From an uncultured Gemmatimonadales bacterium (lineage in GTDB: Bacteria; Gemmatimonadota; Gemmatimonadetes; Gemmatimonadales; GWC2-71-9): a DNA stretch of 64,000 nt. Positions 17,723 to 59,700 of the stretch are shown one piece after another. Each line of letters begins with the position of its first letter. The stretch's first letter is position 1. The notes under the pieces are model-generated. The model had not been told where the DNA came from. It searched no databases and saw only the letters and a list, made by a program, of their open reading frames with translations. The DNA is taken from assembly GCA_963757525.1 (NCBI GenBank), contig CAVWRM010000001.1:3224884-3288883 (forward strand). The letters are read 5' to 3'. A program made the translations under genes and the position numbers.

Positions 17723-17752
17723 GTGTCACGTACCTTTCATCGGGAGCAGAGC

Positions 17753-18295: not shown

Positions 18296-18299
18296 GCCG

Positions 18300-27029: not shown

Positions 27030-27746
27030 ATGCCCGAATGGTATGAAGAGTGGTTCGGCGAAGAATACCTCCAGCTCTACCCTCATCGTGACGACGCCGA
27101 CGCCGAGCGGATGGTGTCGCTCATCCTCGCTACGGTGCCGTTCGAGCCCGGATGGCGCGTGCTCGACGTGGCCTGCGGGGCCGGGCGCCACGCCCGCGCC
27201 TTCCGGGAGGCCGGCGCCATGTGCTTCGGGGTCGACCTTTCCGCCAGCCTTCTGCGCGTGGCGCGCGGCGCAACCGACGCGCCGCTCATCCGGGCCGACA
27301 TGCGCGTTCTCCCGATCCGGCCCGCCTCGATGGCGCTCACCGTCAATCTCTTTACCAGCTTCGGCTATTTCGAGCACGACGCCGAGCACGGCCACGCGCT
27401 CCAGGAAATGGTGGGGACCGTCCGGCAGGGTGGGTGGTTCGTGATCGACGTCCTCAATCCCTCCGCGGTGAGGGCCGGACTGGTCCCGCACGAAACGGTG
27501 CGGACGGGAAGCGTCTCGGCGAATGTCACGCGAACCATTTCGAAGGACCGCCGGTTTGTGTGCAAGACCATCAAATGGTCTACCGGACGCAAGTTCGTCG
27601 AGCGGGTCAGACTTTTCGAGCCCGGGGACATGATCGCCATGCTGACCAGGGCTGGCGTACGTATCGAGCACCGCTTCGGTGACTACGACGGTCACCCCAT
27701 GACCGCCTCGTCGGCGCGCACGATCCTGATAGGTCGGACCGCATGA
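27030..27746 (+). CDS. Class I SAM-dependent methyltransferase
   Basis: Motif I 'VLDVACGAGRHA', 'GVDLS', 'ADMRVLP', 'LTVNLFTSFGYF'. ATGA overlap with the bshC start. Confidence 0.8.
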   Translation: MPEWYEEWFGEEYLQLYPHRDDADAERMVSLILATVPFEPGWRVLDVACGAGRHARAFREAGAMCFGVDLSASLLRVARGATDAPLIRADMRVLPIRPASMALTVNLFTSFGYFEHDAEHGHALQEMVGTVRQGGWFVIDVLNPSAVRAGLVPHETVRTGSVSANVTRTISKDRRFVCKTIKWSTGRKFVERVRLFEPGDMIAMLTRAGVRIEHRFGDYDGHPMTASSARTILIGRTA

Positions 27747-41310: not shown

Positions 41311-41634
41311 ATGGCCATTCGAACCGATGCCGACCTCGCTCGTGCCGCCGAGTTGTTTCACGCCCTCTCGGACCAGACCAGGCTGTCGATTCTCCAGCGC
41401 CTTCGCCTGGGTGAACGCTGCGTCTGCGAGCTGACCGACGCGCTCGAGGCCGCCCAGTCCCGGCTCTCGTTTCACTTGAAGGTGCTCAAGGATGCCGGCC
41501 TGGTGACGGACCGGCGGGAAGGTCGGTGGATGTACTACACGCTATCCGCCGATGCCATGAACGAGCTGGGAGAATTGGTCGAGGGCCTGGGTTCCACGCC
41601 GACGGCGGCTGAGCGCCGGAGCGGCTGTTGCTGA
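41311..41634 (+). CDS. arsR: ArsR/SmtB-family metalloregulator
   Basis: 'LFHALSDQTRLSILQRL', metal site 'ERCVCELTDAL', winged-helix 'HLKVLKDAGLV..RREGRWMYY', C-terminal 'GCC'. Confidence 0.88.
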   Translation: MAIRTDADLARAAELFHALSDQTRLSILQRLRLGERCVCELTDALEAAQSRLSFHLKVLKDAGLVTDRREGRWMYYTLSADAMNELGELVEGLGSTPTAAERRSGCC

Positions 41635-41660
41635 GGTCAACCTGTTTTTTTGACTGACAT

Positions 41661-41676
41661 ATCAACCTTTTTTGAT
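41661..41676 (+). promoter_or_regulatory. Second ATCAA-N6-TTGAT site between arsR and arsM
   Basis: ATCAA (41661-65) CCTTTT TTGAT (41672-76). The half-sites and spacing are the same as in the arsR promoter palindrome. Confidence 0.45.
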
Positions 41677-41686
41677 GAGGGTCAGA

Positions 41687-42514
41687 ATGAGCAGCCAGGA
41701 TATCAAGACCATCGTGCGGGAGCGGTACGGCCAAGCGGCGCTCCGGGCCTCGAGCGGGGCCACATCCGGATGTTGTGGCGGATCGTGCGGCGCCGCGACC
41801 GACGACCCGATCACCTCGAATCTGTACACTCAGGCGGAGACCGCGCTCGTTCCGGCCGAGGCGGTGTTCGCCTCGCTCGGCTGCGGCAACCCGACGGCCC
41901 TCGCCGAGCTCCGCCCGGGCGAGGTTGTTCTCGACCTCGGCTCCGGCGGCGGTATCGACGTGCTCCTCTCGGCGCGGCGCGTCGGACCCACCGGCAAGGC
42001 GTACGGCCTCGACATGACCGACGAGATGCTTGCCCTCGCGCGCGACAATCAGCGGAAGGCCGGACTCGCGAATGTCGAGTTTCTGAAGGGCGACATCGAA
42101 GCGATCCCGCTCCCGGACGCTTCCGTGGACGTGATCATCTCCAACTGCGTGATCAATCTCTCCGCCGACAAGCGAAAGGTGATTGCCGAGGCCTTCCGGG
42201 TGCTTGCACCAGGCGGCCGGCTCGCCGTCTCCGACGTGGTGGTCCGCGGCCACGTTCCCGCCGAGGTCCGTTCCAGCATGGAGCTGTGGGTCGGCTGCAT
42301 CGCGGGCGCACTCGCCGAGGAGGAGTTCCGGGCGCTTCTCCGGGAGACAGGGTTCGACGACATCTCCATCGAGCCCACTCGCATCTACGAGTTGGACGAC
42401 GCCCGGGCATTCCTCTCCGCCTCGGGACTGGATAGCGAGGTACTGGCGCGGGAGGTCGGCGGCTGCGTCATGGGTGCGTTCGTTCGGGCGCGGAAACCCG
42501 GACCGGCTTCGTGA
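41687..42514 (+). CDS. arsM: Arsenite S-adenosylmethionine methyltransferase
   Basis: 'VRERYG', Cys cluster 'GCCGGSCG', 'LGCGNP', SAM motif '[12 protein letters not shown]', '[10 protein letters not shown]'. ATG 41687 with GAGGG upstream. Confidence 0.85.
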
Positions 42515-43488
42515 TCGTGCCGGGAAGGGCGCCAGGGAAGTTCACGATCCGCCAGGCGACGAGGGACGACTACGCGGCGGTCGAGCGCCTGCTCAACGCC
42601 GCCTCCCTGCCGGTCGAGGGACTGGACCCGACACTCGATGACTTCTTCGTGGCGGAACAGGCGGACCAGCAGGTGGTGGGAACCATCGGTCTGGAGCCGT
42701 ATGGCGAGGCAGCCCTCCTGCGGTCCGCCGCCGTCGCGCCGGCCGCGCAAGGCGTGGGCGTCGGCGAGGCACTGGTCAACCGGCTCTCGGATCATGCGCG
42801 GACGCGCGGGATCCGGGAGCTGTACCTCCTCACGACCACGGCGCTCGGCTACTTCACCCGATTCGGCTTCATGCGGATCGATCGCGCCGATGTGCCGCCG
42901 GCGGTTCGGGAGTCGGTCGAGTTCCGCGAGTCCTGTCCTGCTTCGGCGGCGGCGATGCGGAAGCCGTTGTCGTCCCCCCGGGTGCTCTTTCTCTGCACCG
43001 GGAACAGCGCGAGGAGCCGGATGGCGGAAACGATCCTGAATCGCAAGGCCGGGGGACGCTTCGTCGCGGAGAGCGCGGGATCCCGGCCGGCCGCGCGGGT
43101 GAATCCGCACGCCATCGCGGCCCTGGAACGCCACGGGTATTCGTGGACCGGGGGCCCGCCTCGGTCCGTGGATCGTGTACTGGGCGGCCAGTGGGACTTC
43201 GTGATCACGGTGTGCGACCGGGCCAAGGAATCATGTCCTGTTTTTCCCGGCCAGCCGGTGCAAGCGCACTGGGGCATGCCTGACCCGGCCGAGGTTGAGG
43301 GAACGGACCAGGAGATTCGCCGGGCGTTCGATGACGCCCTGATCGCGATCAGCCGCCGGCTCGATCTGTTTTTGGCCCTGCCCCTCGAAAAGCTGTCGGC
43401 AATGGCGCTGGCAAGCCGCGTCCAGGCCATCGGTCATCTCCCCACGTCGCCGGCTGAGGACGCAATCAGTCTGAATCACGGCGGGTGA
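42511..43488 (+). CDS. arsC: Fusion of a GNAT N-acetyltransferase (ArsN-like) and an LMW-PTP-type (thioredoxin-coupled) arsenate reductase
   Basis: GNAT 'VAPAAQGVGVGEAL' and 'GYFTRFGF'. ArsC 'LFLCTGNSARSRMAE' (CX5R-S) and 'VITVCDRAKESCPVFPG'. GTGA overlap with arsM. Confidence 0.8.
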   Translation: MIVPGRAPGKFTIRQATRDDYAAVERLLNAASLPVEGLDPTLDDFFVAEQADQQVVGTIGLEPYGEAALLRSAAVAPAAQGVGVGEALVNRLSDHARTRGIRELYLLTTTALGYFTRFGFMRIDRADVPPAVRESVEFRESCPASAAAMRKPLSSPRVLFLCTGNSARSRMAETILNRKAGGRFVAESAGSRPAARVNPHAIAALERHGYSWTGGPPRSVDRVLGGQWDFVITVCDRAKESCPVFPGQPVQAHWGMPDPAEVEGTDQEIRRAFDDALIAISRRLDLFLALPLEKLSAMALASRVQAIGHLPTSPAEDAISLNHGG

Positions 43489-43999
43489 AGACCACCCGGG
43501 CGGGATTCCCCTGGACGATCGAACGGTCGGGGATGCGGCCGCCAACCACCGAGCCGGCCGCGACGATGACGTCATCGCCCAGCTCCGAGCCGTCGAGGAT
43601 CACGGAATTGGCCCCGACCCAGACCCGGTGGCCGATGCGTACACCCTGACTGGAGAAACGCTGAGCCTGAAGAGGAACTCCGAGCTGGTCGTAGTGATAG
43701 CTGGTGGTGAGGATGGTGCAGTTGGGACTGATGAGGACGTCGTCACCGAGCGTGAGGCCGCCGGGACCGGCGCCGATGAAGCTGTTGCTGCCGATCTGGA
43801 CTCCCCGGCCCATGGTGAATGGGCCGAAGATCTTCACCTTGGCAAAGGCCGAGATCACGCATCCAGGCCCCCAGGCGGTGGACGAGGCGAGGTCCACTTC
43901 CGACCGTCCGCTGATGACCGTTCCATGGCGGACGAAGTAGTACAGCCGCACCATGAACATCGGGACGAGGGCCCGCCGGACCGAATTCCAGAATGGCAT
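43466..43999 (-). CDS. Hexapeptide-repeat (LbH) acyl/acetyltransferase
   Basis: 'VQIGSNSFIGAG', 'IGHRVWVGANSVILDGSELGDDVIVAAGSVV.G.IP..SIVQGNPARV'. Its 3' end overlaps the arsN/arsC 3' end by 23 nt. Confidence 0.8.
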   Translation of the reverse strand: MPFWNSVRRALVPMFMVRLYYFVRHGTVISGRSEVDLASSTAWGPGCVISAFAKVKIFGPFTMGRGVQIGSNSFIGAGPGGLTLGDDVLISPNCTILTTSYHYDQLGVPLQAQRFSSQGVRIGHRVWVGANSVILDGSELGDDVIVAAGSVVGGRIPDRSIVQGNPARVVFTRRDSD

Positions 44000-44023
44000 C
44001 GTGCGTTGCCCGATGGTGATGGG

Positions 44024-44575
44024 CTAGCGGACCGCGGCGATCAGGAAGCGCGCGGCGGCCTGGCTCTGGTTATGCCACCGGCGGGAGTCGCCGGCGTGGA
44101 TGGTGGCCGTCTGCCCGGTCTCCAGAATGTGTTCGCCGCGGTCCGTCGTCAGGACCACGGTACCCTCCAAAATCAGGGCGAACTCCTCGGACGGCGCGGG
44201 GAAGGGGCGCGATCCGCTGCTTCCTCCGGGATCGAGCGTCACCAGAAGCGGCAGGATCCGGGCGCCAAGATTTTCCGCCGAGAGGTACGCGATGCGTGCC
44301 TTGGACCATTCGCTCCGAACGCCGCCCTCCGCCGCCGCCTCCGTCCGCCCGGCCGGTGCCTTCGATCCGTCGAGCTCGCGGAAGAACTCCGCGAGGGTCA
44401 GCCCGAAGGCGCCCGCGATACGCTCCATCGAGGCGATCGAGGGTGAGGCCTGATCATTCTCGACCTGGGATATGAAGCTGGCCGAAAAACCCGACTTCTC
44501 CGCGACAGCGCGCAGCGTGAGCCCGGTGGCTTCACGAAGCCGGCGGACCGTGCCGCCTAGCCTGAGCTCGGACAT
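44024..44575 (-). CDS. XRE-family HTH + cupin-domain protein
   Basis: HTH 'LRRLREATGLTLRAVAEKSGFSASFISQVENDQASPSI'. Cupin 'FALILEGTVVLTTD.GEHILETGQTATIHAGDSRRWHN'. Strong RBS GGGGGGAGAGGG upstream of the ATG. Confidence 0.8.
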   Translation of the reverse strand: MSELRLGGTVRRLREATGLTLRAVAEKSGFSASFISQVENDQASPSIASMERIAGAFGLTLAEFFRELDGSKAPAGRTEAAAEGGVRSEWSKARIAYLSAENLGARILPLLVTLDPGGSSGSRPFPAPSEEFALILEGTVVLTTDRGEHILETGQTATIHAGDSRRWHNQSQAAARFLIAAVR

Positions 44576-44961
44576 CCCTCTCCCCCCGCCAGCGCCACCG
44601 CCACCACCAGTCGTCCCATCAGTCGCCACGCGACCCGCGCTTCGGCCGGCCCGGCTGGCGCCGTCCATGCGGCGCGGCCAGCAGCCGGCCCCCCTCCCAT
44701 GCGCACGGCGAGCTCCGGCACGAGGGGGGCGCCCCGGCAGGCCTTGAAGACGGCTTCCCGGCAGCACAGCACGATCGTGAGGGCGCGCCGCAGCGACGGC
44801 TGCCCGTCGCACCACTCCCGTTCCGCGGGCGAGAGGAAACGGTCGGCGACCCGCCTCACGGCAACCTCGCCCAGCCGATTCAGCATGGCGGGCTCCTCGA
44901 TATCGATCCCGATACCGGCGATCCCGTCGCTCCCACGGCGCGTCGGGACGACGGCCGACAT
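44557..44961 (-). CDS. AcpS-type 4'-phosphopantetheinyl transferase
   Basis: 'IAGIGIDIEE', 'RFLSPAEREW', 'CCREAVFKAC'. About 134 aa. Overlaps the ACP stop by 1 nt and the XRE-cupin start by 19 nt. Confidence 0.72.
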   Translation of the reverse strand: MSAVVPTRRGSDGIAGIGIDIEEPAMLNRLGEVAVRRVADRFLSPAEREWCDGQPSLRRALTIVLCCREAVFKACRGAPLVPELAVRMGGGPAAGRAAWTAPAGPAEARVAWRLMGRLVVAVALAGGEGCPSSG

Positions 44962-45212
44962 CAGGCCGCGCCCTCCTGGCGATGCAGCCGCTCCACGATG
45001 CGATCGAAGGATGTGAGGGCGCGGATCTCCTCATTGGTGAGCGTCGTCCCGAACTCGTGCTCGATCTGCGACACCAGCATGAGATGAACGAGCGAGGTCC
45101 ACGCAGGCGCCGTATCCTGGGAAAACCCGGGGCCGATCGCGTCGGCCGGCGTCCCGGTGACCTGCGCGAGCAACTCGCGAACCCGGGCCGCGACGGCGTC
45201 GGCGCCGGTCAT
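44961..45212 (-). CDS. Acyl carrier protein (stand-alone)
   Basis: 83 aa. 'VRELLAQVTG.PADAIGP...APAWTSLVHLMLVSQIEHEFG..LTNEEI' fits the ACP helix II pattern with the Ser in 'WTSL'. ATGA overlap with the FkbH-like stop. Confidence 0.7.
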   Translation of the reverse strand: MTGADAVAARVRELLAQVTGTPADAIGPGFSQDTAPAWTSLVHLMLVSQIEHEFGTTLTNEEIRALTSFDRIVERLHRQEGAA

Positions 45213-47053
45213 GAGCTTCGCCCTGAGCCCGCGTGGGTCGCGGCGTCGCGCCCCGCCTCTTCGATCCACGCCGGCCACTCCGGCCCCGGTCGATCGAGTC
45301 GCCGAACCCAGCGTCCCCCGCCGTCCTCCTCAAACCCATGGTTCGGCAGGAACGTCGCCGCTACCTGATTGCGGCCCGAATCGATGAATTCGGCGGACAG
45401 CGCGGTGGCACCCGTCGCCCTTGCGTCCGCGGCGATTCGTGCGATCAGGGCACTTTCGACCGACTTCCCGATCACGCGACAGCTCATGAGAAACGAATCC
45501 AGCAGCCAGTCCCCCGGCCCGGGCACCGCGACCGCGACGCCGGTGAGGCCGAAGTCTCCGAAGCGGTCCGCCACCCGCATGGTGTAGACCCGCCAGTCGC
45601 CACGGCTGACGTTCCGCCGGATGGTCGTCTCGTCGTGCCGCCTCGTCGTCAGATTGAACTGGTTGGTCTTCAGGAAAAGCTGCACCACCCGGCTCATGGA
45701 ATCATCCCCCACCAGCTCGATGCTTACTCGCAGCTCGAGCCCGCGGAGGAAGTCCTCCACCGAGCCGACCCGCGAGCGGTAGGCGTCGCGCTCCCTGGTC
45801 TCCTGATACTGTGCCGTACGGCGCGCGTCTTCCGAGGTCTGCCCCAGCACCAGCAGCGAAGGCAGCGACCCGATCCAGTCGGCGTAGAGGGAGGAGTCCG
45901 TCGGCAGGTCCGGCACGATGAGCTGGGGGATCTGCTCGTGCACCCAGGCCCGCTCGTGCGGACTGTCGTCGATCAGGAGCATATGATCGAGCCCGATGTT
46001 CAGCTCGGCGGCGATGGAGCGGATGCTGCTGGCCTTGTCTTCCCAGTTGACCCGGAGTGCGGCGAGGTGCTGCTCACGGATCAACATATGGGGATGCTCC
46101 CGCAGCACGTGCAGCACCTCGTCTTCGTTGTTCTTGCTTGAAAGGGCCAACAAGATGCCCTGGCGCTGGAGATCGAGCAGCTCGCGCTGGAAATCGAGAA
46201 ACTGCTGGCCCGGCCACTGGGGGCCGAGGGCGATGCCGGACGCGCCGTCCTCGCCCAGCACGCCGCCCCAAAGCGTGTTGTCGAGGTCGAGCACGATACA
46301 CTTCGTCGCCTTGCCGAGCGCCGCGAGGGCGAAGCCGACATAACGTCGCGCCACCGCCGACATGAGCGCGTCCGACCAGGTCACGTGCCCGCGATAGTGC
46401 GAGGGCCAGTTGAACGCGACGGTCCGGCCGATCTGGGAGACGACGTCGGCCAACGGAAACAGGAAGCTCTGCTGACGGGCCGCAAGCCTCAGACGGAGGT
46501 GCTTGTTCGCATGGGCCACCGTATGAGCGAACGTGCCTTTGTCGCGGAAGGCATTGACGCCCTCCGTGCTTCGGCGCGGCAGGGGAAAGTCGTTGACGAC
46601 GACCAGGCCGCTGCCGGCATGCTGGAACGTCTCCAGTCCCGCGAAGAGCGGCGTGAGCAGACCGCCCACCACCTGTTCGCTTCCGAGCGGAGGCGCTTCG
46701 GCCCACCGCTGATTCCAGAGGACGTCGCTGTCGATCGCGAGGAACGTGACGTCCGGCCGAAACCGGTACAGACCGGACCCCTGATCGAGCAACTCCGGCA
46801 GATATTGGCCGTAGGCGCCGAGGTATGGCTCGATCCAGATTCCCACCCGGGCGCCTTCCACCCGCAGTACCGGGATGAAGGGCTCCAGGGTGAACGATCC
46901 GAGCAGGGCGACCCGGGCCCGCAGGTGCTGCGGAACGGCCTCCCCGGCCACGCGGTCGAGCTCACGCGCGGCCGCGACGTACGAGGCCCACGAGCTTCCC
47001 TCCCGCACCCCGATGGCCAGGTTCTTCAGTGTTAGGCTGTCGATCATCGCCAC
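45209..47053 (-). CDS. FkbH-like protein (HAD subfamily IIIC phosphatase domain + C-terminal GNAT-like acyltransferase domain)
   Basis: 'KCIVLDLDNTLWGGVLGEDG', 'LSSKNNEDEV', 'MLLIDDSPHER', C-terminal 'KTNQFNLTTRR...FLMSCRVIGK'. GTG 47053 or ATG 47047 start. Confidence 0.85.
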   Translation of the reverse strand: MAMIDSLTLKNLAIGVREGSSWASYVAAARELDRVAGEAVPQHLRARVALLGSFTLEPFIPVLRVEGARVGIWIEPYLGAYGQYLPELLDQGSGLYRFRPDVTFLAIDSDVLWNQRWAEAPPLGSEQVVGGLLTPLFAGLETFQHAGSGLVVVNDFPLPRRSTEGVNAFRDKGTFAHTVAHANKHLRLRLAARQQSFLFPLADVVSQIGRTVAFNWPSHYRGHVTWSDALMSAVARRYVGFALAALGKATKCIVLDLDNTLWGGVLGEDGASGIALGPQWPGQQFLDFQRELLDLQRQGILLALSSKNNEDEVLHVLREHPHMLIREQHLAALRVNWEDKASSIRSIAAELNIGLDHMLLIDDSPHERAWVHEQIPQLIVPDLPTDSSLYADWIGSLPSLLVLGQTSEDARRTAQYQETRERDAYRSRVGSVEDFLRGLELRVSIELVGDDSMSRVVQLFLKTNQFNLTTRRHDETTIRRNVSRGDWRVYTMRVADRFGDFGLTGVAVAVPGPGDWLLDSFLMSCRVIGKSVESALIARIAADARATGATALSAEFIDSGRNQVAATFLPNHGFEEDGGGRWVRRLDRPGPEWPAWIEEAGRDAATHAGSGRSS

Positions 47054-47201
47054 CTGAGCGTAGAGTTATACTGGACGGCGTCCTGTAAAGTAGCACTGAA
47101 CGAGCGTGCGCGTTGTGATTCGAGTCCCCAGGCCCGATCGGGCCCCGGGACCCCCGTCTCGTCTGCATACAGACTTGTTCGACAATCAGTTAGCCCACTC
47201 G

Positions 47202-49016
47202 GTGGGGAGGCCGGCTCTGAAGCCCTGCATCCTATCGTTGTCCCTGGCTGTGTTCTGGGTGGGGTGCGGGGGAGGGGACACATCAGCCGGCCCTGGCGGC
47301 GAGAGACAGCCGGCGGCGCTCGAGGTCCTCGAAGGGAACGACCAGGTCGGACAGCCAGACCAGGCGCTTGCGCTCCCCGTGAAAGTCCTCGTCACGGATG
47401 CGAGCGGAGACCCTGTGCCCAGGGTGAGCGTGGCGTTCGGGACGGACGAGGGCGACGGAGACCTCTCGCCCCCGACCGTCGAGACGGACGCCGACGGGAT
47501 CGCCGAGTCCGCGTGGACTCTCGGCCCGATGCCTGGCGCGAACACGGCGACCGCAACGGTTCAGGGACTGCCGGCGGTCGTGCTCTCAGCGACGGCGGTG
47601 AGTCCGCCCCCCACGACTCTGGTGATGATCGCCGGGAACGGACAGGAGGCCGTGGCCGGTGCCGATGTGCCCGCCCCACCGACGGTCGAGGTCCGGGACG
47701 GAGCCGGACATCCGACCGCCGGAGTCGAGGTGCGGTTCGACGCGACGGGCGGCGGCTCGGTATCGCCGGAGGCGGTGGTGACAGGCCAGGATGGCCGGGC
47801 CTCACCCGATCGCTGGACTCTCGGCACGACGGCGGGGGAGGACACCCTCCGGGCATCGTCACCTGCGGTGTCCGGCGCCGTCGTCGAGTTCGTGGCCGGC
47901 GCGATCCCCGGCCCCGTGAGCGCCTCGACCTCGTCCATCTCCATTGCACCAGACCGACCGGTGACCGGCGAGACCGCCGACATCCGTGTCGTAGCCCGGG
48001 ACTCCTACGGCAACCCGGTGAGCGAGGTCGCTGTCACGCTCGACGCGACCGGTTCCGGTCACACGATCGGACAGCCGGCACAGCCGACCGGTCCGGATGG
48101 AGTCGCCACCGGGACGATGGTGTCCTCGCAGGCGGGATCGACCACCATTTCAGCAGAGGCCGGCAGCGTCCCGCTCGAGCACACGGTCACCCTCACGGTG
48201 GCGTTCGGTGAAGCCACGCTGGTCGGCCGCACCTATTGCACCATCGGTGGGGTGACCTCGGTCATGGATGTGTACGTACCCGACACCTCACATCCGCGTC
48301 CACTCCCTGTCGCCGTCCATGTCCATGGTGGCGGCTACACCGGCGGAAGCCGGTCAACGGGGTTCTACTTCTCGGACATCGAGCCCGTTCTGCTCGACCG
48401 CGGCTATCTGGTCGTGAGCCTCGACTACCGGTTGGCGCCGGCCCATAAATATCCCGCGCAGATCGAAGACGTGAAGTGCGCCATCCGGCATCTGCGGGCC
48501 AAGGCCGACCTCTATGGATTGGACACGGCTCGAATCGGCGTGTGGGGATCGAGCGCGGGGGCGCAGCTCGCCGGCCTCATGGGCACAACCGGCGGCCACT
48601 CGACCTTCGACGATGCCGGAGGGTTTCAAGGGCAGTCGAGCGAGGTCCAGGCGGTGATCGCGATGTCGGCCATCACCGATTTTACCCGCACGGCGGAGCT
48701 GAACGACAACTACAAGCCCGAGTTCCCCTCATGGCCCGACCCGGACTCTCCGGACCTCATCGAAGCGAGTCCGGCATCGCACGTGACCCCGGACGATAGT
48801 CCCTTCTTGTTCATCGCCGGCGAGGACGACGATCTCGTCCTGCCGGCCCAGTCTCAGCACATGGACGCGCTGCTCCACGGCAGCGGGGTGGCGTCCGAGC
48901 TGTTGCTCGTCTCCCACGCCGACCATGCTCTCATGAGCACCGACGCCCCGATTTCCCCCACCGTGACGGCCATCGTTCAGCGGATGGCCAATTTCTTCGA
49001 TCAGCACCTGCGCTGA
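47202..49016 (+). CDS. Lipoprotein: three Ig-like (Big-type) repeats + alpha/beta-hydrolase esterase domain
   Basis: Lipobox 'AVFWVGC'. Repeats of the type 'V.V.D..G.PV.GV.V.F....G'. Esterase 'VHVHGGGYTGGS', nucleophile 'GVWGSSAGA', 'SHADHAL'. GTG 47202 chosen within ORF 47106. Confidence 0.78.
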   Translation: MGRPALKPCILSLSLAVFWVGCGGGDTSAGPGGERQPAALEVLEGNDQVGQPDQALALPVKVLVTDASGDPVPRVSVAFGTDEGDGDLSPPTVETDADGIAESAWTLGPMPGANTATATVQGLPAVVLSATAVSPPPTTLVMIAGNGQEAVAGADVPAPPTVEVRDGAGHPTAGVEVRFDATGGGSVSPEAVVTGQDGRASPDRWTLGTTAGEDTLRASSPAVSGAVVEFVAGAIPGPVSASTSSISIAPDRPVTGETADIRVVARDSYGNPVSEVAVTLDATGSGHTIGQPAQPTGPDGVATGTMVSSQAGSTTISAEAGSVPLEHTVTLTVAFGEATLVGRTYCTIGGVTSVMDVYVPDTSHPRPLPVAVHVHGGGYTGGSRSTGFYFSDIEPVLLDRGYLVVSLDYRLAPAHKYPAQIEDVKCAIRHLRAKADLYGLDTARIGVWGSSAGAQLAGLMGTTGGHSTFDDAGGFQGQSSEVQAVIAMSAITDFTRTAELNDNYKPEFPSWPDPDSPDLIEASPASHVTPDDSPFLFIAGEDDDLVLPAQSQHMDALLHGSGVASELLLVSHADHALMSTDAPISPTVTAIVQRMANFFDQHLR

Positions 49017-49238
49017 GCCCGCGGTGCCAGTGGGGACCATCCGGCGCGCCGTTGCGGCACCGTTGGTCGGAATGACCCAACAACCCGACCCTGAAGGAAT
49101 CATTAAGTGACGGAGGGACAATCACTTCCTGGGATTGTCCCCAGGTAGGCCATGGCGCGGAACCTGCGGCAAGGGGCAAGGCTACCTATACTTCGCCCGC
49201 TGAGCTTTTGCACCACCGAACCCCAACGACGCGTATAC

Positions 49239-51385
49239 ATGACCCGCTCCCCCCGACTCGCCACTCGTCTCGGCACGATCCTTCTCGCCGTCGGCGCCCT
49301 CACCTGCGGCGGTGATGGCACCGACCCCAATCCTGCCGATCCGACGAAGCTTGCAGTGACCACCCAGCCGTCGAGCTCCGCGCAGAACGGACAGGCCCTT
49401 GCGGTGCAACCCGTGGTGCAGGTCCAGGACGCCAACGGTGAAGACGTAGCCGCGCCGAGCGGCACAACGATCACGGCATCGGTGACCGGCGGAGGCGCCA
49501 CGGTTCAGGGCACGGCCACCGTGACGCCCGATGCCACCGGCAAGGCGACGTTCACCGACCTGGCTCTCACCGGCGCCGGCGGCACGTATACGCTCCAGTT
49601 CAGCGGCAACGGACTTTCCGGCGCGACCTCGTCCAACATCGTGCTCGCGGGCGGGCCGCCGTCGACCATCACGGTCACCATTCAGCCCACCAGCGCACTC
49701 GACGAGGAAGTCTTCGACCCGTCACAACAGCCCGTGGTGACCGTGACCGACGCCGGCGGCAACCCCGCGGCCGACGTGTTGGTCACCGCGTCGATCGCGT
49801 CGGGCACCGGAACGCTGCAGGGCAGGGACACGGCCACCACGGACGCCTCCGGCGTCGCGCGGTTCACCGACCTCGGGATCGGCGGCGCCGGCTCGCAGAC
49901 GCTCGGCTTCAGCGGCGGCGGCGCCACCGGCACCTCCGCGCCGATCAACATCGCCACCCTCTCGGCGCAGGCGACGGCGGGCCAGTGGGACGCGCCGGTG
50001 GCGTGGGACATCGTGCCGCTGCACATGCACCTGCTGCCCACGGGCAAGATTCTCGCCTGGGGGCGGTTCGAGAATGGTACGATGATGATGGCCAATCCAC
50101 GCCTCTGGGATCCGGCGGCAGGACCGCCCACGACCGCCATAACCGTACCCGCGGATACCATGCTCTTCTGCGCCGGTCATGGGTTCATGGCCGATGGGAC
50201 ACTAATGGTGTCAGGGGGGCACAAACTGGACGATCGCGGGCTCGATGTGACCAATTTCTTCAACCCGGCAACCCAACAGTGGACGGCCGGGCCCAAGATG
50301 GCCAAAGGGCGCTGGTATCCCACCGTCACCGAGCTGCCCGATGGCCGGATGATCACTGTGGCGGGCAAGGACACGAGTAAGACCACGGTGCTCATTCCGG
50401 AGATCTGGGAGAATAACCATTGGGTTCAGCTCCCCGGTGCACCTCTCAGCTTCCCTACTATCCGCGTGACTTCGTCTCACCCGACGGGCGCATCTTCATG
50501 GCAGGCGAGCGCACGATGTCACGCTGGCTGAGCGTTGACGCCATGGGGGCGGGCGGGCGGGGAACTTGGGTCAACGGACCCGCACACATCTGGCCGTTCA
50601 ACCGCGACTATGGGTCGGCGGTCATGTACGAGGCGGGGAAGATCCTGTATGTCGGTGGAGGCGGCGACCTGACCTGGGACACCCCGGATCCGAAGAACGG
50701 GACGCCCACCGCAACGGCAGAGAAGATCGATCTCACGCAGGTGTCGCCGACATGGGAAAGCGCTGGATCGTTACCGACGCCGCGGCGGCACCTCAACGCC
50801 ACGGTGCTCCCCGACGGCAAAGTGCTTGTGACCGGCGGCGTCAGCGGGGCCGGCTTCAACAACATCGGCACGGCTCAACACGCCGCGGAGATCTGGGACC
50901 CTGCCACCAATAACTGGACCGGTCTCGCAAGCAATGCGGTGAACCGAGGGTATCACTCGGTTTCGCTCCTCCTCCCCGACGCCACAGTGCTGCACGGCGC
51001 CAGCGGAAATGCGAACATTCCCGGGACGTCTACCCCGTACCCCGACGAGGAGAGTCACGAGATCTACCATCCGCCCTACCTCTTCAAGGGTGCCCGGCCG
51101 ACGATCACGAACGTCGCCTCCCCCGTGAGCTACGGCGGCGATTTCACCGTGACGACACCCAACGCCGCCCAGATCACGACGGTGCGTATCACCCGGCTGG
51201 GCTCGGTGACCCACGCGTTCGACCAGAACGGCCGCACGATGAGGCTATCCTTCACGGCCGGGGCCGGCAGCATCAGCGTCACCGCGCCGGCCAACGCCAA
51301 CGCCGCGCCGCCGGGCGATTACCTGCTCTTCGTGCTCAATCGGAATGGGGTGCCGTCGGCGGCAAAGGTGGTGCGGATTCAGTAG
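49239..51385 (+). pseudogene. Glyoxal oxidase / galactose-oxidase-like lipoprotein (Ig-like repeats + Kelch-type propeller + DUF1929-like C-terminus) interrupted by a 1-nt frame change near 50440-50456
   Basis: ORF 49152..50531 ends '...NNHWVQLPGAPLS' plus junk. ORF 50420..51385 is junk plus 'LPYYPRDFVSPDGRIFMAGE...'. The two halves form one continuous propeller. Signal peptide 'LGTILLAVGALTCGG'. Confidence 0.75.
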
Positions 51386-52980
51386 GCCACGTCGAGCATG
51401 ATCGTGGGCTCGCTGGCGGAGGGCGAAGGCTTGCCCTCCGCCAGGTTGTTTTCCCACCATGCGCGCGCGTGGCCTGCAGTCCACGGATCGCCCGCGTCCA
51501 CCCGCACCAGCGCCTCCGCCAGCTCGCCGGCAGACGCCGGCCGGCCTGCAGGCTCCTTGGCCAGACAACGAAGAATGATCTCGTCGAGCGCGCGGGGGAT
51601 GGCGAGTCCCGACCTGTCCGACGGCGGTACCGGCCGGCCCTGCAGGTGCTGGAGGATCATCCTGAGCGCGTTGTCCGCCTCGAAGACCAGCGTGCCCGTG
51701 AGCAGGAAGTAACCGACGCACCCCAGCGAATAGAGATCCACCCGCGCGTCGATCGCTTCGCCCGACGCCATCTCCGGTGGCATGTATGCCGGGGTCCCGG
51801 TCGTGGCCTGGGGAGCGGTGAGCAGGGTCTGCCGGCCCGCCTCCTGATCCCGCTTGGCGAGCCCGAAATCCAGCACCTTGATGAAGTCGTAATCGAGACC
51901 GAGCCGGCAAAGATGCAGGTTGGCCGGCTTGATGTCCCGGTGTATCAAACCGGACGCGTGGGCTTCGGCGAGGGACGCACACGCCTGCAGGAGCAGGTGG
52001 ACCACGCGAGCCGGTGGCTGCGGCCCGAAGCGACGGACCAGCGTCTCGAGGTCCATCCCGTCCAGCAGCTCCATCACGATGTAGAAGCGCCCGTCACGCG
52101 TCACGCCGAAGTCGTAGAGCTGGATGCTGTGGGGCGAGCGCAGGCTCGCGGCCGCCTGGGCCTCCCGCCGGAACCTCGCCACCGCGGTGGCGCTGTCCTC
52201 GTCGTCCCGACGCGGACGGATCAGTTTGATGGCGGCGGGGCGCGCCAGCAGGCGGTGGTGCGCCCGCCACACCTCGCCCATTCCGCCCTCGCCGATCCGG
52301 TCCGCCAGCCGGTAGCTGCCCATCTCTCTCGCGCGGCTCACCTGTCGCCCCATCCGCAGGATGATCTTCGACGGAAGGACCGCCAGCAGCGCACAGACGT
52401 AGTTGGGCGTGTAGGCCCAGACGAGGAGTGGGAGACTCGGGAGCTCCACGCCGCGGAGATGCGCCACGATGAGACCGACCGGGTCCATACTGGCCGCGAG
52501 GAGCGATGCGATGAGCGTCTTCCTGGGCGGTGCCGGCACGATCAGCGGCTGAATCAGGATCAGCACGCACAGCCACGAGAGCCGTCCGCCCAGCACCGCC
52601 GGATTCCACTGGTTCACGAGCCCGACTCCGAAGGCGAGTACGACTTCGTAGGCCAGCCCGACGTTGACGAGCTTGTGACCCTGGCTCCGGCAGGTGGGCG
52701 CCCACCGGTAGAGGGCCACCGACAGGAGGATGAACACCACCGCGAAGACGTCGGCGAGCGGCGGCCACGCCAGCACCGCGTCCCGGGGCAGATCGAGCAG
52801 CGGGCGGATCAGGTGGTTCATCACCAGGCCGATGGTCCACAGCCCGATCCAGACGGCCGCCGCGATGCGGAGCCGCTGGACGATCTCGCCGACCAGCTCG
52901 TCGGGCAGCGAGGCGTCGGCTCCCCCGGTGGTCGAGGGCGTCGTGTTGACCTGGGGCTCCACTCGTGAGTGGCTGGGCAT
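51379..52980 (-). CDS. Ser/Thr protein kinase with an N-terminal six-helix membrane domain
   Basis: Six hydrophobic segments in the first ~215 aa. Then 'IGEGGMGEVWRA', 'AIKLI', 'HRDIKPANLHL', 'DFGLAK', 'GTPAYMPPE'. Its 3' end overlaps the upstream gene by 7 nt. Confidence 0.85.
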   Translation of the reverse strand: MPSHSRVEPQVNTTPSTTGGADASLPDELVGEIVQRLRIAAAVWIGLWTIGLVMNHLIRPLLDLPRDAVLAWPPLADVFAVVFILLSVALYRWAPTCRSQGHKLVNVGLAYEVVLAFGVGLVNQWNPAVLGGRLSWLCVLILIQPLIVPAPPRKTLIASLLAASMDPVGLIVAHLRGVELPSLPLLVWAYTPNYVCALLAVLPSKIILRMGRQVSRAREMGSYRLADRIGEGGMGEVWRAHHRLLARPAAIKLIRPRRDDEDSATAVARFRREAQAAASLRSPHSIQLYDFGVTRDGRFYIVMELLDGMDLETLVRRFGPQPPARVVHLLLQACASLAEAHASGLIHRDIKPANLHLCRLGLDYDFIKVLDFGLAKRDQEAGRQTLLTAPQATTGTPAYMPPEMASGEAIDARVDLYSLGCVGYFLLTGTLVFEADNALRMILQHLQGRPVPPSDRSGLAIPRALDEIILRCLAKEPAGRPASAGELAEALVRVDAGDPWTAGHARAWWENNLAEGKPSPSASEPTIMLDVAY

Positions 52981-54166: not shown

Positions 54167-56602
54167 GTGAGCGACCTCCTTCCCGAGCTCCAACGCCTCC
54201 TCAAGGACCGATACGCGGTCGAGCGCGAGGTGGGCCGAGGCGGCATGGCGCAGGTATTTCTCGCGCGGGACAAGAAATACGGGAGACGGGTCGCCATCAA
54301 GATCATGGACCCGGACATCTCCAGCGCCGTCGGGCCCGAGCGCTTTCTCCGCGAAGTCCAGATCACCGCCCAGCTCCAGCACACCAACATCGTCCCTCTC
54401 CTCGACTCGGGCGAAGCCGAAGGCCTCCTGTACGCCGTGATGCCGTACATCGAAGGCGAGTCGCTCCGCGACCGGATGATGTGCTGCGGCAGGGTGTCCG
54501 TCGCCGAGGCCGCCTCGATCGCCTGCGAGGTAGCCGACGCCCTCGAGTACGCCCATCGCCACGGGGTGGTGCACCGCGACGTCAAGCCCGAGAACATCCT
54601 GCTCTCGAATGGTCACGCCGTCGTGGCGGACTTCGGCGTCGCCCGCGCCGTGGAGCTGTCGGGCGGAGCGACGCTGACCGGCATCGGGCTGCCCATCGGC
54701 ACGGTGGCCTACATGAGCCCGGAACAGGCGACGTCCGCAGCGGGCGTCGATGGCCGCAGCGACATCTACAGCCTCGGATGCGTACTCTACGAGATGCTGG
54801 CGGGGCGGATGGCCTTCAGCGGTCCGACCCTCAAGAGCGTGCTCACCCAGCAGCTCACCAGCGACCCGCCGCTGGAGCATCTGGAGGCCGCCGAGGTGCC
54901 GCCCGGTCTCATCACGACGGTGCGCCGAAGCATGGAGAAGGCGCCGGAGGATCGCTTCCAGACCGCCGGCGCCCTTGCTGAGGCGTTACGCGAGACGCTC
55001 GGCGCCCTTCCGCGACTCTCGACCCCGGTCCCGGCAGTAACTCCGGAGTCGGTCCGATCCGGCGAGCCCGAGCGGGGATCAGCCGGGCGCTGGTTGATCC
55101 CCGCCGCGCTGCTCGCCGCGATCGCGCTCGTCTTCCTCGTATGGCATCCCTTCGAGTCCCATCGCCCGACCGTCCCCAAGCCGCCCACGGCGAGCCGCTA
55201 CGCGGCCTCGGTGGCGGTGCTCCCCTTCGACAACCTGAGCGGTGACTCCTCCAACGAGTACTTCAGCGAGGGCATCACCGAAGAGATCATCGGCCAGCTC
55301 GCGCAGGTCGAGGGTCTCAAGGTGATCTCGCGAACCTCGGTCATGGCTCTCAAGGGCAGTTCGCTCACGCTGCCGCAGATCGGCGAGACCCTGGGCGTCC
55401 AGCACGTGGTCGAGGGGGCGGTCCGAAGACAGGGAAACCGGGTCCGGGTGTCGGCCGAGCTGATCGAGGCCAGGTCCGAGGAGCACCTCTGGGCCGGCAT
55501 CTTCGAGGGCGACCTGTCCGACCGGTTCCGGGTGCAGGAGGAGATCGCCCGCAAGGTGACGGAAAAGCTGGCCAGCGGGCTGACCGGCATGCGAACGATG
55601 GCCGAGGGCGCGATGGCCACGCAAAGCGCGGCGTTCGACGCGGTATTGCGCGGCCGGTACATCATGAATCGCCGGGATCCCCAGGCGCTCGAGTCGGCGA
55701 TCGGGCTGTTCAACGAAGCGGTGAAGCTCGACAGCGCCTACGCTATGGGATACGCCGGGATGAGCTCGGCATACTCGACGTGGGTGTTCTACGGCTACCG
55801 AGGGAATTTCAGCCAGTATCAGGCGGCCGCCCGGGCGAAATCGCTGGCGCTTCGTGCCGTGGCGCTCGATTCCGGCCTCGCGGAGGCGCATCACGCCCTG
55901 GCCGACGCCCTGGTGGTGAACGAGGCTCCGCTGGACTCCGCGCTCGCGGAGCTGCGGCGGGCGCTCCAGCTCAAGCCGAACGACGCAGCGATCCGGATGT
56001 CGGCCGCGTTCTCGCTCGCGGCGAGTCACCGATACAACGGCGCGATCCGCCAGGCCCAGGCCGCGGTCGGGTTGGACCCGCTCGCCACCGGGCTGCGCCA
56101 CGGTCTCATCGTGCTGGCCCTCGGGGGGCGGGAATACAACACCGCCCTCGAGGAGGCCCGGCGAGTGCAGGCGCTGGCGCCGGCCGATCCGGTGACGGCC
56201 GTGCTCCAGAGCTACGCGCTGCTCTTGAGCGGCAACGCGAGCGGCTGCCTGGCGCTGGACCTGGGCCCCTGGCTCGCGGCCCGGTCCATGTGTCTGTACC
56301 GCGCCGGACGCCGCGAGGAGGCGCGCGAGCTCATCGACTCGCTCGAGCAGCAGCTTCGTGCCGGCAAGTTCACCAATGCCCACCAGTATTCGGATCTCGC
56401 CGCCTACTTCGCCTGGACCGGTGACGTGGACCGCTCCCTCGAATGGTTCGAGCGCTCGGTGCGGGTGACACCGGTGATCGCCTACTGGCAGATCGACTCG
56501 GGACTCTTCGACCGCATCAGGCAGGACCCGAAGTTCATCCAGGGACTGGCGCGAATCTCCGAGGACGCCCGCACCCGCGCCGCGGCCGCCAGCCCCCGAT
56601 GA
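54167..56602 (+). CDS. Ser/Thr protein kinase with TM, periplasmic TolB-N-like module and TPR repeats
   Basis: 'VGRGGMAQVFLA', 'VAIKIM', 'HRDVKPENILL', 'DFGVARA', 'YMSPEQ'. TM 'WLIPAALLAAIALVFLVW'. 'VAVLPFDNLSGDSSNEYFSEGITEEII'. TPR-like tail. Confidence 0.88.
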   Translation: MSDLLPELQRLLKDRYAVEREVGRGGMAQVFLARDKKYGRRVAIKIMDPDISSAVGPERFLREVQITAQLQHTNIVPLLDSGEAEGLLYAVMPYIEGESLRDRMMCCGRVSVAEAASIACEVADALEYAHRHGVVHRDVKPENILLSNGHAVVADFGVARAVELSGGATLTGIGLPIGTVAYMSPEQATSAAGVDGRSDIYSLGCVLYEMLAGRMAFSGPTLKSVLTQQLTSDPPLEHLEAAEVPPGLITTVRRSMEKAPEDRFQTAGALAEALRETLGALPRLSTPVPAVTPESVRSGEPERGSAGRWLIPAALLAAIALVFLVWHPFESHRPTVPKPPTASRYAASVAVLPFDNLSGDSSNEYFSEGITEEIIGQLAQVEGLKVISRTSVMALKGSSLTLPQIGETLGVQHVVEGAVRRQGNRVRVSAELIEARSEEHLWAGIFEGDLSDRFRVQEEIARKVTEKLASGLTGMRTMAEGAMATQSAAFDAVLRGRYIMNRRDPQALESAIGLFNEAVKLDSAYAMGYAGMSSAYSTWVFYGYRGNFSQYQAAARAKSLALRAVALDSGLAEAHHALADALVVNEAPLDSALAELRRALQLKPNDAAIRMSAAFSLAASHRYNGAIRQAQAAVGLDPLATGLRHGLIVLALGGREYNTALEEARRVQALAPADPVTAVLQSYALLLSGNASGCLALDLGPWLAARSMCLYRAGRREEARELIDSLEQQLRAGKFTNAHQYSDLAAYFAWTGDVDRSLEWFERSVRVTPVIAYWQIDSGLFDRIRQDPKFIQGLARISEDARTRAAAASPR

Positions 56603-59600: not shown

Positions 59601-59700
59601 GCCGGACGGCCGGTACCGTCAGCGGGAGGGCGCCGGCACCGAGCCGGGAAGCCAGGAACGGTTCGCTTCAGAAAGCACTTCCGATCCACAAGCGAAGTGA
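56599..59700 (+). CDS. ppk1: Polyphosphate kinase 1 with a ~360-aa N-terminal extension (CYTH/TTM-like domain + degenerate Nudix-like domain)
   Basis: PPK1 'VEFNARVLALAED..IPIVERLGFLSIVSSNVDEFFMV', 'GLKNHAKVGLV', 'ATGNYN', 'GSADWRPRNL'. Extension 'YRDIYFDTADGALSRRGVVCRWRI'. ATGA overlap with the kinase stop. Confidence 0.88.
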   Translation: MTGPPDRQLKWDVPTPERLRDLASGPLPLRLPSTPVTRALYRDIYFDTADGALSRRGVVCRWRIGADDRRALKVRFSAGDAVVSETPETEASAALAGASEAARRLRGVVNQADLQPLVELEVERLTRESKSPWPWRGQFTFFYDAVSVRRAGIARTFQEMKVRRLRGGSPTLEAIGAAMPEVRPILEGKLARAQRLSAGLEREALARSLASGRTTALLVLDRGRVALRRGEGRHRLPVGAGQGEAACRHLLQQTLGSSVGDLAFLGTVAGIGAVHLLDVWLARRVRTDQEASADIDWLPLDDVIATAGGPGLGDPETLTAIAFALRSGVSPEPATTAPVIQPAPASGGPVAVDDSEATPLLDPDISVVEFNARVLALAEDARIPIVERLGFLSIVSSNVDEFFMVNVGALKQEAQDGRLDAVGLRLRGLLERQTRTAETCLEKLRSYGVTIRSWDGLSDMARARMIERFQREIYPLVTPRAITMSPGFPVPLLPHLTLCMAVSLMDADEGSTHFAYLRMPERLPRFLPTGEGGEVIPIEEVVRANVAAFYPGRTIDGAFLFRLTRAAEIELDDREAGDLLQAVREAVGGRASNAVVRLEVERPMPRVIRDRIRWELRFERDAEGTGVSDADVYEVGGLLDLRALRELGAAAVPAGGGRFPALAARDPFAQDTDLWTRLDAGDVLLFHPYEDYSASIVRFFSEAAEDPQVASIRLTLYRVGEQSPIVDALLRARAAGKEVILFVELKARFDEARNVAWVQRLEDAGATVVYGVVGLKNHAKVGLVLRRTGTAGELRRYVHIATGNYNVATARQYTDLGLLSADQRLGNDVHELFNELTGSSQPPGGRHDRIVVAPTHLLPHVLAAIENEIGHARAGREARIRAKLNGLADTEVIRALYRASEAGVDIQLVVRGLCTLRPGLPGISSRIRVVSLLGRLLEHGRIYHFANGGDDRYYIGSADWRPRNLRRRVEVIVSITDPDHRARLNNILEVELADPNAWELQPDGRYRQREGAGTEPGSQERFASESTSDPQAK

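Follow-up and report, generated by a model that had tools for sequence, protein, structure and literature searches.

A candidate FkbH- and carrier-protein-dependent acylation operon in a Gemmatimonadales genome and its possible role in surface glycan modification

Introduction

In textbooks, FkbH enzymes appear as the source of unusual starter and extender units in polyketide synthesis. A dedicated carrier protein is also central to the Dlt system (DltA-DltC-DltB-DltD), in which a small acyl group, D-alanine, ends as an ester on teichoic acids, while LpxA and LpxD are precedents for enzymes of the left-handed beta-helix (LbH) fold that take their acyl group from a carrier protein. Here, a 64,000-nucleotide stretch of DNA (hereafter the window; contig CAVWRM010000001.1, positions 3,224,884 to 3,288,883) from an uncultured soil-type bacterium of the Gemmatimonadales was analysed with regard to a five-gene operon, which encodes an FkbH-like loader, an acyl carrier protein (ACP), an AcpS-type 4'-phosphopantetheinyl transferase (PPTase), a regulator and an LbH O-acyltransferase. 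It is tentatively proposed, as a reading nearly as apt to be right as wrong, that this operon serves to acylate a cell-surface glycan by way of a carrier protein: glyceryl-S-ACP would be formed by the loader, the LbH protein would use it to O-acylate a glycan precursor, and a divergently encoded esterase could remove the ester again.

Characterised FkbH enzymes convert 1,3-bisphosphoglycerate to glyceryl-S-ACP (PMC7489565), and glycerate-derived substituents have been described on several glycans. Native gellan bears an L-glycerate ester at O-2 of Glc (PMC9104527), Campylobacter jejuni 11168 carries 2,3-di-O-methylglyceroyl pseudaminic acid (PMC3068675), and N-glyceroyl pseudaminic acid (Pse5Am7Gra) is found in Tannerella forsythia, where a 2017 paper described its genetic basis as unknown (PMC5378307). 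The flagellin glycosylation locus of C. jejuni 11168 includes an fkbH-domain gene, cj1302 (PMC7099621).

Structure of the operon

The window has a GC content of ~68%, and the closest homologues of its proteins come from metagenome-assembled genomes of Gemmatimonadales. The operon comprises five minus-strand open reading frames (ORFs), read from 47047 to 43466, whose order from 5' to 3' is FkbH-like loader, ACP, PPTase, a regulator with an XRE-type helix-turn-helix (HTH) and a cupin domain, and the hexapeptide O-acyltransferase (Table 1). These identities had been assigned in an earlier sequence-only reading of the same DNA; all five ORFs were found to be present, and profile searches against Pfam and NCBIfam agreed with the assignments. 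The tight chaining described in that reading was likewise recovered on the sequence: the ACP start overlaps the FkbH stop in an ATGA at 45209-45212, the PPTase start overlaps the ACP stop in a TGATG at 44959-44963, the XRE-cupin gene shares 19 nt with the 3' end of the PPTase gene (44557-44575), and a gap of 24 nt (44000-44023) lies between the XRE-cupin and LbH genes. The five genes are regarded as real, since the GC content at third codon positions (GC3) is 0.82-0.85 for the FkbH, ACP and LbH genes, the three listed by the GC3 filter, and since orthologues of all five, at 41-83% identity, occur in other Gemmatimonadales contigs.

A small correction to the gene models concerns the start of the loader, which had been read as an ORF of 45209-47053. 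The gene itself stands, but the ATG at 47047, giving 612 aa, is a more likely start than the GTG at 47053, because the database copy of the protein has 612 aa and ATGATCGAC is kept in relatives. Scans of 43300-47300 for sigma-70 promoters and intrinsic terminators found neither, with a scan consensus that may not suit this phylum.

The FkbH-like loader

The loader scored well above the curated cutoffs of both TIGR01686 (293.1 bits against 146.65) and the HAD-IIIC model TIGR01681 (63.5 bits against 35.75), and it consists of an FkbH_N-like N-terminal domain, a HAD-IIIC phosphatase domain and a C-terminal GNAT-fold domain bearing Cys525. In an alignment with 26 diverse homologues (33-73% identity), the HAD residues D256, D258 and T260 of motif I (DLDNT), together with S306, K340 and D362-D363, were invariant, as was the S524-C525-R526 triplet. 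The HAD catalytic Asp pair, whose absence from the protein had been feared in the sequence-only reading, is accordingly present as D256/D258. Cys525 is taken by us to be the carrier of the acyl-enzyme intermediate, as in OzmB.

The Protein Data Bank (PDB) holds no full-length FkbH structure, the only solved relative being 3slr (Bacteroides fragilis BF1531; E 4e-47), which covers the N-terminal two-thirds, that is, the N-domain and the HAD domain; the fold search could therefore only confirm the three-domain layout. The AlphaFold (AF2) model of the loader had a pLDDT of 86 and a pTM of 0.77, and in Foldseek it matched 3slr over the N-domain and HAD domain (TMt 0.85) and many GNAT acetyltransferases over the C-terminus, the HAD fold matching that of 3slr and of MDP-1. 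The modelled three-domain arrangement is thus a confident prediction.

FkbH domains embedded in polyketide synthases (PKS; proteins of 2,554-5,663 aa) match residues ~211-583 of the loader at 32-37% identity, and the 633-aa FkbH of a tetronate-type cluster on a Methylosinus OB3b plasmid, whose order is FabH-like, FkbH, ACP, E2-like, FAD-dependent monooxygenase, alpha/beta hydrolase and type I PKS, matches residues 47-608 at 33%. Since the FkbH proteins of PKS and tetronate clusters are as similar to the loader as those found in glycan contexts, the core chemistry is probably common to both groups, and by analogy with the characterised enzymes the loader would be expected to convert 1,3-bisphosphoglycerate to glyceryl-S-ACP.

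The carrier protein and its PPTase

The ACP lies just over the gathering cutoff (GA) of PF00550 (22.3 bits against 20.8) and had no match in NCBIfam. Across 80 homologues encoded beside FkbH genes, W38 and S40 of a W-[D/T]-S motif are 99% conserved, the motif being WDS in 89% of the homologues and WTS in the window protein, and Ser40 is the predicted site of phosphopantetheine attachment. The PPTase is a single-domain protein that matched PF01648 with 40.4 bits (cutoff 25), and the motifs GIGIDIEE and CREAVFKA, which hold the GxD and E metal-binding motifs, were read on its sequence. Because it remained under all AcpS equivalog cutoffs in NCBIfam, it is not considered a housekeeping AcpS orthologue; orthologues of it were found in three Gemmatimonadales relatives (L001, L005 and L006). 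The divergent ACP and a PPTase of its own would form a coherent pair.

The LbH transferase

The LbH protein matched Hexapep with 58.7 bits, and its hexapeptide repeats are present. The best of its NCBIfam matches was WbbJ (74 bits; cutoff 243), and all the others were below cutoff as well. In the PDB, the best matches were the galactoside and maltose O-acetyltransferases 3ftt, 1kqa and 1ocx (E ~1e-13), with the His of a TSYH motif aligned to the catalytic His of TATH in those enzymes. Owing to these matches and to the aligned His, the protein is placed, on sequence similarity, in the sugar O-acyltransferase branch and in neither the LpxA/LpxD branch nor the PglD/NeuD N-acetyltransferase branch. 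Such a placement would fit an ester product and the co-conserved esterase described below. Moreover, since the LbH gene shares its operon with genes for an ACP and the ACP's loader, the donor may well be acyl-ACP instead of acetyl-CoA, and the protein is a candidate for the transferase of the ACP-borne acyl group. Its orthologues in Gemmatimonadales, at 64-83% identity, always adjoin FkbH, even where the gene order differs.

Two architectures among Gemmatimonadales relatives

Nine further Gemmatimonadales contexts were read with 10-kb flanks, and two arrangements were distinguished. In type A, the order is FkbH-ACP-PPTase-XRE/cupin-LbH, as in the window, in the P0002 contig (84% identity) and in L001, L005 and L089. 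In type B, found in L002/3, L006, L008 and L090, the order is LbH-FkbH-ACP-(PPTase), directly followed by genes for a NAD-epimerase/dehydratase, an AsnB-like amidotransferase, a protein with a weak Polysacc_synt match (Wzx-like) and a family 4 glycosyltransferase (GT4); in L006 and L090 these partners measure 340, ~600, ~410 and ~397 aa, respectively. The 7.95-kb contig L009 has the order LbH-FkbH-ACP-PPTase and ends before any partner genes. An LbH orthologue adjoins FkbH-ACP in both architectures despite the rearrangement. As a side observation, the LbH gene of L008 (9401-9976) is read as two ORFs, which may reflect a frameshift or an assembly error.

The divergently encoded esterase, with its Big_1 and BD-FAE domains, has an orthologue (52-66% identity) in divergent orientation upstream of the cassette in every context except L090 (L001, L002/3, L005, L006, L008, L009, L089 and the P0002 contig). 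The outer flanks vary. Because this adjacency is conserved while the outer flanks differ, the stable unit is considered to consist of the esterase and of LbH, FkbH and ACP, with or without the PPTase. The description of the cassette as self-contained applies to type A and fails for type B, which is fused to the epimerase/AsnB/Wzx-like/GT4 cluster. In the sequence-only reading, a cassette that always sits inside a larger PKS or polysaccharide cluster in relatives would have spoken against the proposal. Glycan genes do follow type B directly, and in type A they occur within 10 kb in L001 only, beyond the esterase, where they encode an AsnB-like protein, a methyltransferase, two epimerases, a deacetylase-like protein and a GT4; the other type-A contexts do not follow this pattern. 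Although the type-B fusion comes close to that earlier objection, it argues for the glycan reading.

The XRE-cupin gene, for its part, is confined to the type-A relatives (L001, L005, L089 and the P0002 contig). Its presence inside the cassette, as had been reported, is therefore correct, but it is not a core part and is better described as a lineage-specific add-on. The best NCBIfam model for its product was PuuR, at a sub-cutoff score of 75.7 bits. The divergent intergenic region between the loader and the esterase (47048-47114) measures 67 nt and contains a 15-mer, CAGTGYTACTTTACA, ~37 nt upstream of the FkbH start (Table 1). This 15-mer is common to type-A loci only, being conserved in the window, L001 and L005; it occurs once in the window, where 0.01 occurrences would be expected by chance, and every locus in which it was found also has the XRE-cupin gene. 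It could be an operator or a promoter, or a mere trace of close relatedness.

The wider FkbH-ACP family

The loader belongs to a large family, with 14,094 clusters at 50% identity for E <= 1e-3 and 5,989 for E <= 1e-30, counts that take in PKS-type members. Its 80 best genome matches span bacteria (Acidobacteriota, Planctomycetota, Myxococcota, Proteobacteria, Firmicutes and, within the candidate phyla radiation (CPR), Saccharibacteria and Staskawiczbacteria) and archaea (Promethearchaeota/Thorarchaeota, Nitrososphaerales, Nanoarchaeota and Micrarchaeota). For a survey of gene neighbourhoods, 86 loci from bacteria, archaea and CPR were fetched, 83 of them non-redundant. A small ACP ORF directly follows the FkbH gene, or in a few loci lies close by, in ~78 of the 86, and in 18 loci, with archaea and CPR strongly represented, the FkbH gene has a PPTase gene beside it.

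ORFs within 6 kb were clustered and the cluster representatives annotated, with counts given per 83 loci. LbH transferases were the commonest family (25 loci), followed by GT4 (21), AsnB-like amidotransferases, VOC/glyoxalase proteins and MaoC+SDR fusions (20 each), NAD-epimerases/dehydratases (18), PPTases as a clustered family (11), UDP-glucose dehydrogenases, GNAT proteins (Acetyltransf_6) and sulfotransferases (10 each), DegT aminotransferases (8), AAC(3)-like N-acyltransferases (Antibiotic_NAT; 7) and family 2 glycosyltransferases (6). In comparison, FabH-like and PKS ketosynthase (KS) probes taken from the Methylosinus cluster matched 5 of the 86 loci and no Gemmatimonadales locus. The comparison with FkbH-like loci of glycan clusters, which had been suggested together with the sequence-only reading, thus revealed FkbH-ACP pairs far more often in glycan clusters than in PKS clusters.

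These results bear directly on whether the cassette feeds glyceryl-ACP to a polyketide, tetronate or nonribosomal peptide synthetase (NRPS) pathway whose genes lie in another part of the 3.7-Mb genome. Such a supply role is the only use of FkbH/ACP that has been established experimentally (PMC7489565), and tetronate-type clusters can include an FkbH protein of the long form, as in the plasmid-borne cluster of Methylosinus OB3b, where a FabH-like protein and a type I PKS are encoded alongside. It is nevertheless very improbable for this operon, given the paucity of KS matches among related loci, the physical fusion of the type-B relatives to glycan genes, and the lack of KS, PKS and NRPS genes both in the 64 kb of the window and in the 10-kb flanks of the nine Gemmatimonadales contexts.

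The nearest relatives outside Gemmatimonadales are from Asgard archaea (38-41% identity), where the order is PPTase-FkbH-ACP and an LbH gene lies 240-260 nt downstream on the opposite strand; the four-part set therefore recurs far outside the phylum. The use of ACPs is not generally attributed to archaea. Sets of PPTase-FkbH-ACP were noted in Asgard archaea, Nano- and Micrarchaeota and CPR (L010, L011, L013, L014, L020, L048, L056 and L079), often with LbH, AAC(3)-like, MaoC or VOC genes and with sugar genes. A different layout was observed on pSymA of Sinorhizobium meliloti (L088; CP090105.1, 291131-310297), with genes for an MBOAT protein, a protein annotated as TonB-dependent receptor, an ACP and a 628-aa FkbH-like protein annotated as HAD family hydrolase; it resembles the Dlt arrangement, FkbH standing where the adenylating enzyme would be.

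The variety of partners raises the question of whether the LbH protein takes part at all. In an alternative explanation, the loader, ACP and PPTase would make acyl-ACP for a transferase encoded elsewhere, of the MBOAT, GNAT or AAC(3)-like type, and the LbH protein would be an independent, acetyl-CoA-dependent O-acetyltransferase acting on the same glycan or on another. The LbH protein is indeed nearest to the acetyl-CoA-using LacA/Maa enzymes, the partners of other FkbH-ACP pairs include Antibiotic_NAT proteins in 7 loci, Acetyltransf_6 proteins in 10 and the MBOAT of pSymA, and ~58 of the 83 loci have no LbH gene nearby. This explanation is considered unlikely in the present case, since the Gemmatimonadales LbH gene travels with FkbH-ACP through two gene orders and many different flanks and since the cassette has no other transferase.

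Another point concerns the acyl group. MaoC-dehydratase+SDR fusions, lone MaoC proteins and small VOC/glyoxalase proteins recur beside FkbH-ACP (for example at L027:12037-13215, L013:12045-12458 and L079:11897-12322); none of the MaoC, SDR and VOC genes is found in the window cassette. It has to be considered that the FkbH proteins of glycan loci load something other than glycerate, such as a different acyl phosphate or phosphorylated hydroxy-acid, or that the loaded product is remodelled, so that the group transferred would not be glyceryl. The MaoC, MaoC+SDR and VOC neighbours elsewhere imply further chemistry on the ACP, the identity of the loader to PKS-context FkbH proteins is only 32-37%, and the ACP is of a divergent WxS type that no NCBIfam model matches. 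On the other hand, every catalytic residue of the HAD and Cys domains is conserved, and in a cassette that contains no tailoring enzyme the directly loaded group would be the one transferred, which makes a non-glyceryl product distinctly unlikely here.

Proposed function

Domain identities, catalytic residues, operon structure and gene-neighbourhood statistics together are the observations from which we infer the following sequence of events for a glycan-acylating operon. The PPTase would convert the ACP to its holo form at Ser40. The loader would take an acyl phosphate, by analogy D-1,3-bisphosphoglycerate, through an acyl-S-Cys525 intermediate, its HAD domain (D256/D258) would remove the 3-phosphate, and the glyceryl group would be passed to the ACP. 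The LbH protein would then use glyceryl-S-ACP instead of acetyl-CoA and esterify a hydroxyl of a sugar nucleotide or of a lipid-linked glycan on the cytoplasmic side. After export, the ester could be hydrolysed or trimmed by the divergently encoded Ig-domain esterase. The XRE-cupin protein might sense a ligand and repress or activate the divergent promoter region. Predictions drawn from the observations are thus the substrate (1,3-bisphosphoglycerate or glycerate), the use of acyl-ACP by the LbH protein, a glycan as acceptor, and the parts assigned to the esterase and the regulator.

Direct transfer of an ACP-borne small acyl group onto a glycan, lipid or metabolite had already been suggested in the sequence-only reading. 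That suggestion is strengthened by the present results, and its acceptor is narrowed to a glycan, because homologous FkbH-ACP pairs are found far more often in glycan clusters than in PKS clusters; the acyl group, its transfer from ACP by the LbH protein and the acceptor are still predictions.

Several points weigh against a glycan-acylating operon of this kind. LbH enzymes of the LacA/Maa branch characteristically take acetyl-CoA. Additionally, a dedicated FkbH-linked LbH subfamily extending across phyla was considered and rejected, as the proteins from other phyla show 25-40% identity to the one in the window and are no closer than LacA/Maa. Glycan clusters often contain LbH genes in any case, and the adjacency of such a gene to FkbH outside Gemmatimonadales could be coincidental. 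The acyl group of the cassette is assumed by homology, and the MaoC, SDR and VOC neighbours suggest that in other loci the ACP-bound group is processed further and that the final acyl group there may not be plain glycerate. With regard to the acceptor, Pfam scans of ~45 candidate genes across the window found no glycosyltransferase and no flippase, and of the four other type-A contexts three likewise had neither within 10 kb. Finally, a literature search found, among the papers it covered, none characterising an FkbH/ACP pair, or the substrate of an FkbH protein, in a glycan locus.

If the glycan-acylation proposal holds, it would provide a function for the very many pairs annotated as HAD-IIIC family phosphatase plus acyl carrier protein in glycan loci, it would explain how glyceroyl substituents are installed on sugars such as nonulosonic acids, and it would account for the ACP and PPTase genes that stand beside FkbH in the sampled archaea and CPR bacteria. 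What would be novel is the coupling of FkbH/ACP loading to glycan acylation instead of polyketide synthesis, and nothing categorically new would be involved. A broader generalization is considered possible and rather doubtful, namely that FkbH-ACP(-PPTase) modules are a widespread route by which glycolysis-derived glycerate, borne by a private carrier protein, reaches surface glycans in bacteria, in Asgard and other archaea and in CPR, with interchangeable transferases (LbH, GNAT, AAC(3)-like or MBOAT), the Gemmatimonadales version leaving a mark that is reversible by the esterase and controlled by the cupin regulator. In practical terms, the compact five-gene operon, equipped with its own PPTase and free of tailoring enzymes, lends itself well to reconstitution in vitro as a minimal system.

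Genomic surroundings

The lack of ketosynthase, PKS, NRPS and dehydrogenase genes, which had been noted for the vicinity of the cassette, was found by the Pfam scans to hold for the whole window, and no MBOAT gene was detected in the window either. Dehydrogenases of the 3-hydroxyacyl-CoA and acyl-CoA types and O-methyltransferases are absent from the cassette and its immediate flanks; the methyltransferase genes of the window do not adjoin FkbH/ACP and encode an ArsM-like protein (41672-42514), a Methyltransf_25/11-family protein (27030-27746) and a SPOUT protein (26461-26925).

Table 1. Features of the operon and of its surroundings in the window
Feature	Coordinates	Strand	Remarks
FkbH-like loader, 612 aa	45209..47047	-	TIGR01686, TIGR01681; three domains
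ACP, 83 aa	44961..45212	-	PF00550
AcpS-type PPTase, 134 aa	44557..44961	-	PF01648
XRE-family HTH + cupin regulator (PuuR-like), 183 aa	44024..44575	-	HTH_31/HTH_3 and Cupin_2
LbH hexapeptide O-acyltransferase, LacA/Maa/WbbJ/WcaF type, 177 aa	43466..43999	-	Hexapep
Conserved 15-mer CAGTGCTACTTTACA	47084..47098	-	Candidate promoter/operator; palindrome GGACGcCGTCC next after the 15-mer
Secreted/lipoprotein-type esterase	47106..49016 (called start 47115)	+	Three Big_1 Ig-like domains and BD-FAE/Abhydrolase_3 (Pfam); divergent
GlxA-like radical copper oxidase, split	49152-50531 and 50420-51385	+	Two overlapping ORFs
ars operon (ArsR, ArsM-like methyltransferase, ArsN2-ArsC fusion)	41311-43488	+	Convergent with the LbH gene
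Lipid A/outer-membrane cluster	15332-25126	+	~20 kb from the cassette

The two secreted Ig-domain enzymes that had been reported as neighbours fared differently. The esterase is conserved, as described above, and it is probably linked to the cassette in function, removing or editing the ester. The oxidase did not stand as an intact gene and is kept only in the closest relative. Its domains comprise an N-terminus of Ig-like and CarboxypepD_reg type, Glyoxal_oxid_N, Kelch repeats and a GO-like E-set domain, and its frame changes near 50440-50470; in the closest relative an intact gene of 716 aa occupies the same position, and the split version is either a real pseudogene or the product of an assembly indel.

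The lipid A/outer-membrane cluster consists of genes for BamA, a small ORF with no Pfam match, LpxD, an LpxC-FabZ fusion (19321-20592), LpxA, LpxB, DUF374 and LpxK, the LpxB match being confined to the C-terminal half of a 757-aa ORF. A link between the cassette and this cluster (15-25 kb) was considered and rejected, as the cluster has no synteny with the cassette in relatives. The same result bears on the possibility that the acceptor is not a polysaccharide repeat unit but a membrane lipid, lipid A or the lipopolysaccharide core. Lipid A synthesis does involve LbH acyltransferases with acyl-ACP as donor (LpxA and LpxD), a lipid A cluster does lie 20 kb away in the window, and the type-B partner cluster is very small, with one GT4 and one Wzx-like protein, as would suit the decoration of a core or glycolipid. 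A lipid acceptor is highly unlikely nonetheless, given that the LbH protein falls outside the LpxA/LpxD branch and that the lipid A cluster is unlinked to the cassette in relatives.

Among the remaining genes, the ars operon and the LbH gene have 23 nt in common at their 3' ends (43466-43488). The window also encodes three Ser/Thr protein kinases (53-2383, 51379-52980 and 54167-56602), of which two contain TPR repeats. In a polyphosphate kinase ORF (56443-59700), the PPK domains begin only at residue ~415 of 1,085, which may reflect an over-called start or an N-terminal extension.

Comparison with known systems

With the glyceryl-ACP loaders FkbH, OzmB, Tmn16, RkE, Mad7 and Mad14, the cassette shares the TIGR01686 domain, the HAD DxDxT motif, the conserved Cys and an adjoining small ACP, and the long form of ~600 aa is also known from a tetronate-type cluster (Methylosinus, 33% identity). 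It differs from the methoxymalonyl-ACP pathway (FkbG-K) in having neither the FkbI and FkbK dehydrogenases nor the FkbG methyltransferase, and from the glycerate utilisation operon of tetronate pathways in having no FabH-like ketosynthase, with no PKS or NRPS within 64 kb. Unlike in those PKS and tetronate systems, the loader is accompanied by an LbH protein, a dedicated PPTase, a regulator and a secreted esterase, and in relatives the setting is one of glycan biosynthesis.

In C. jejuni, the likeness lies in an FkbH-domain gene, cj1302, placed in a glycan-modification locus of a strain, 11168, with a glycan bearing a glycerate-derived acyl group. A link between cj1302 and the glyceroyl group is absent from PMC7099621 and PMC3068675, and the likeness considered here is one of locus context; that locus, unlike the cassette, modifies a nonulosonic acid on flagellin. 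Gellan and the pseudaminic acid of T. forsythia illustrate the kind of product predicted for the cassette, with the difference that FkbH chemistry would give the D-isomer, whereas gellan contains L-glycerate.

As for the transferase, the LbH protein resembles LacA, Maa, NodL, WbbJ and WcaF in its hexapeptide repeats, its aligned catalytic His and its similar size, and it differs from them in falling below every equivalog cutoff and in sharing an operon with an ACP and the loader of that ACP. LpxA and LpxD, both of which are also encoded in the window, belong to another LbH branch, with long-chain hydroxyacyl donors and UDP-GlcNAc/GlcN as acceptor. Finally, the Dlt system resembles the proposed glycan-acylating operon in that a small acyl group borne by a carrier protein is delivered to an envelope polymer, and the MBOAT-ACP-FkbH set on pSymA of S. 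meliloti can be viewed as an FkbH version of it. In the cassette, however, the loader is an FkbH protein using an acyl-phosphate-derived group rather than an adenylating enzyme, the transferase is a soluble LbH protein rather than MBOAT plus DltD, and the host is a diderm.

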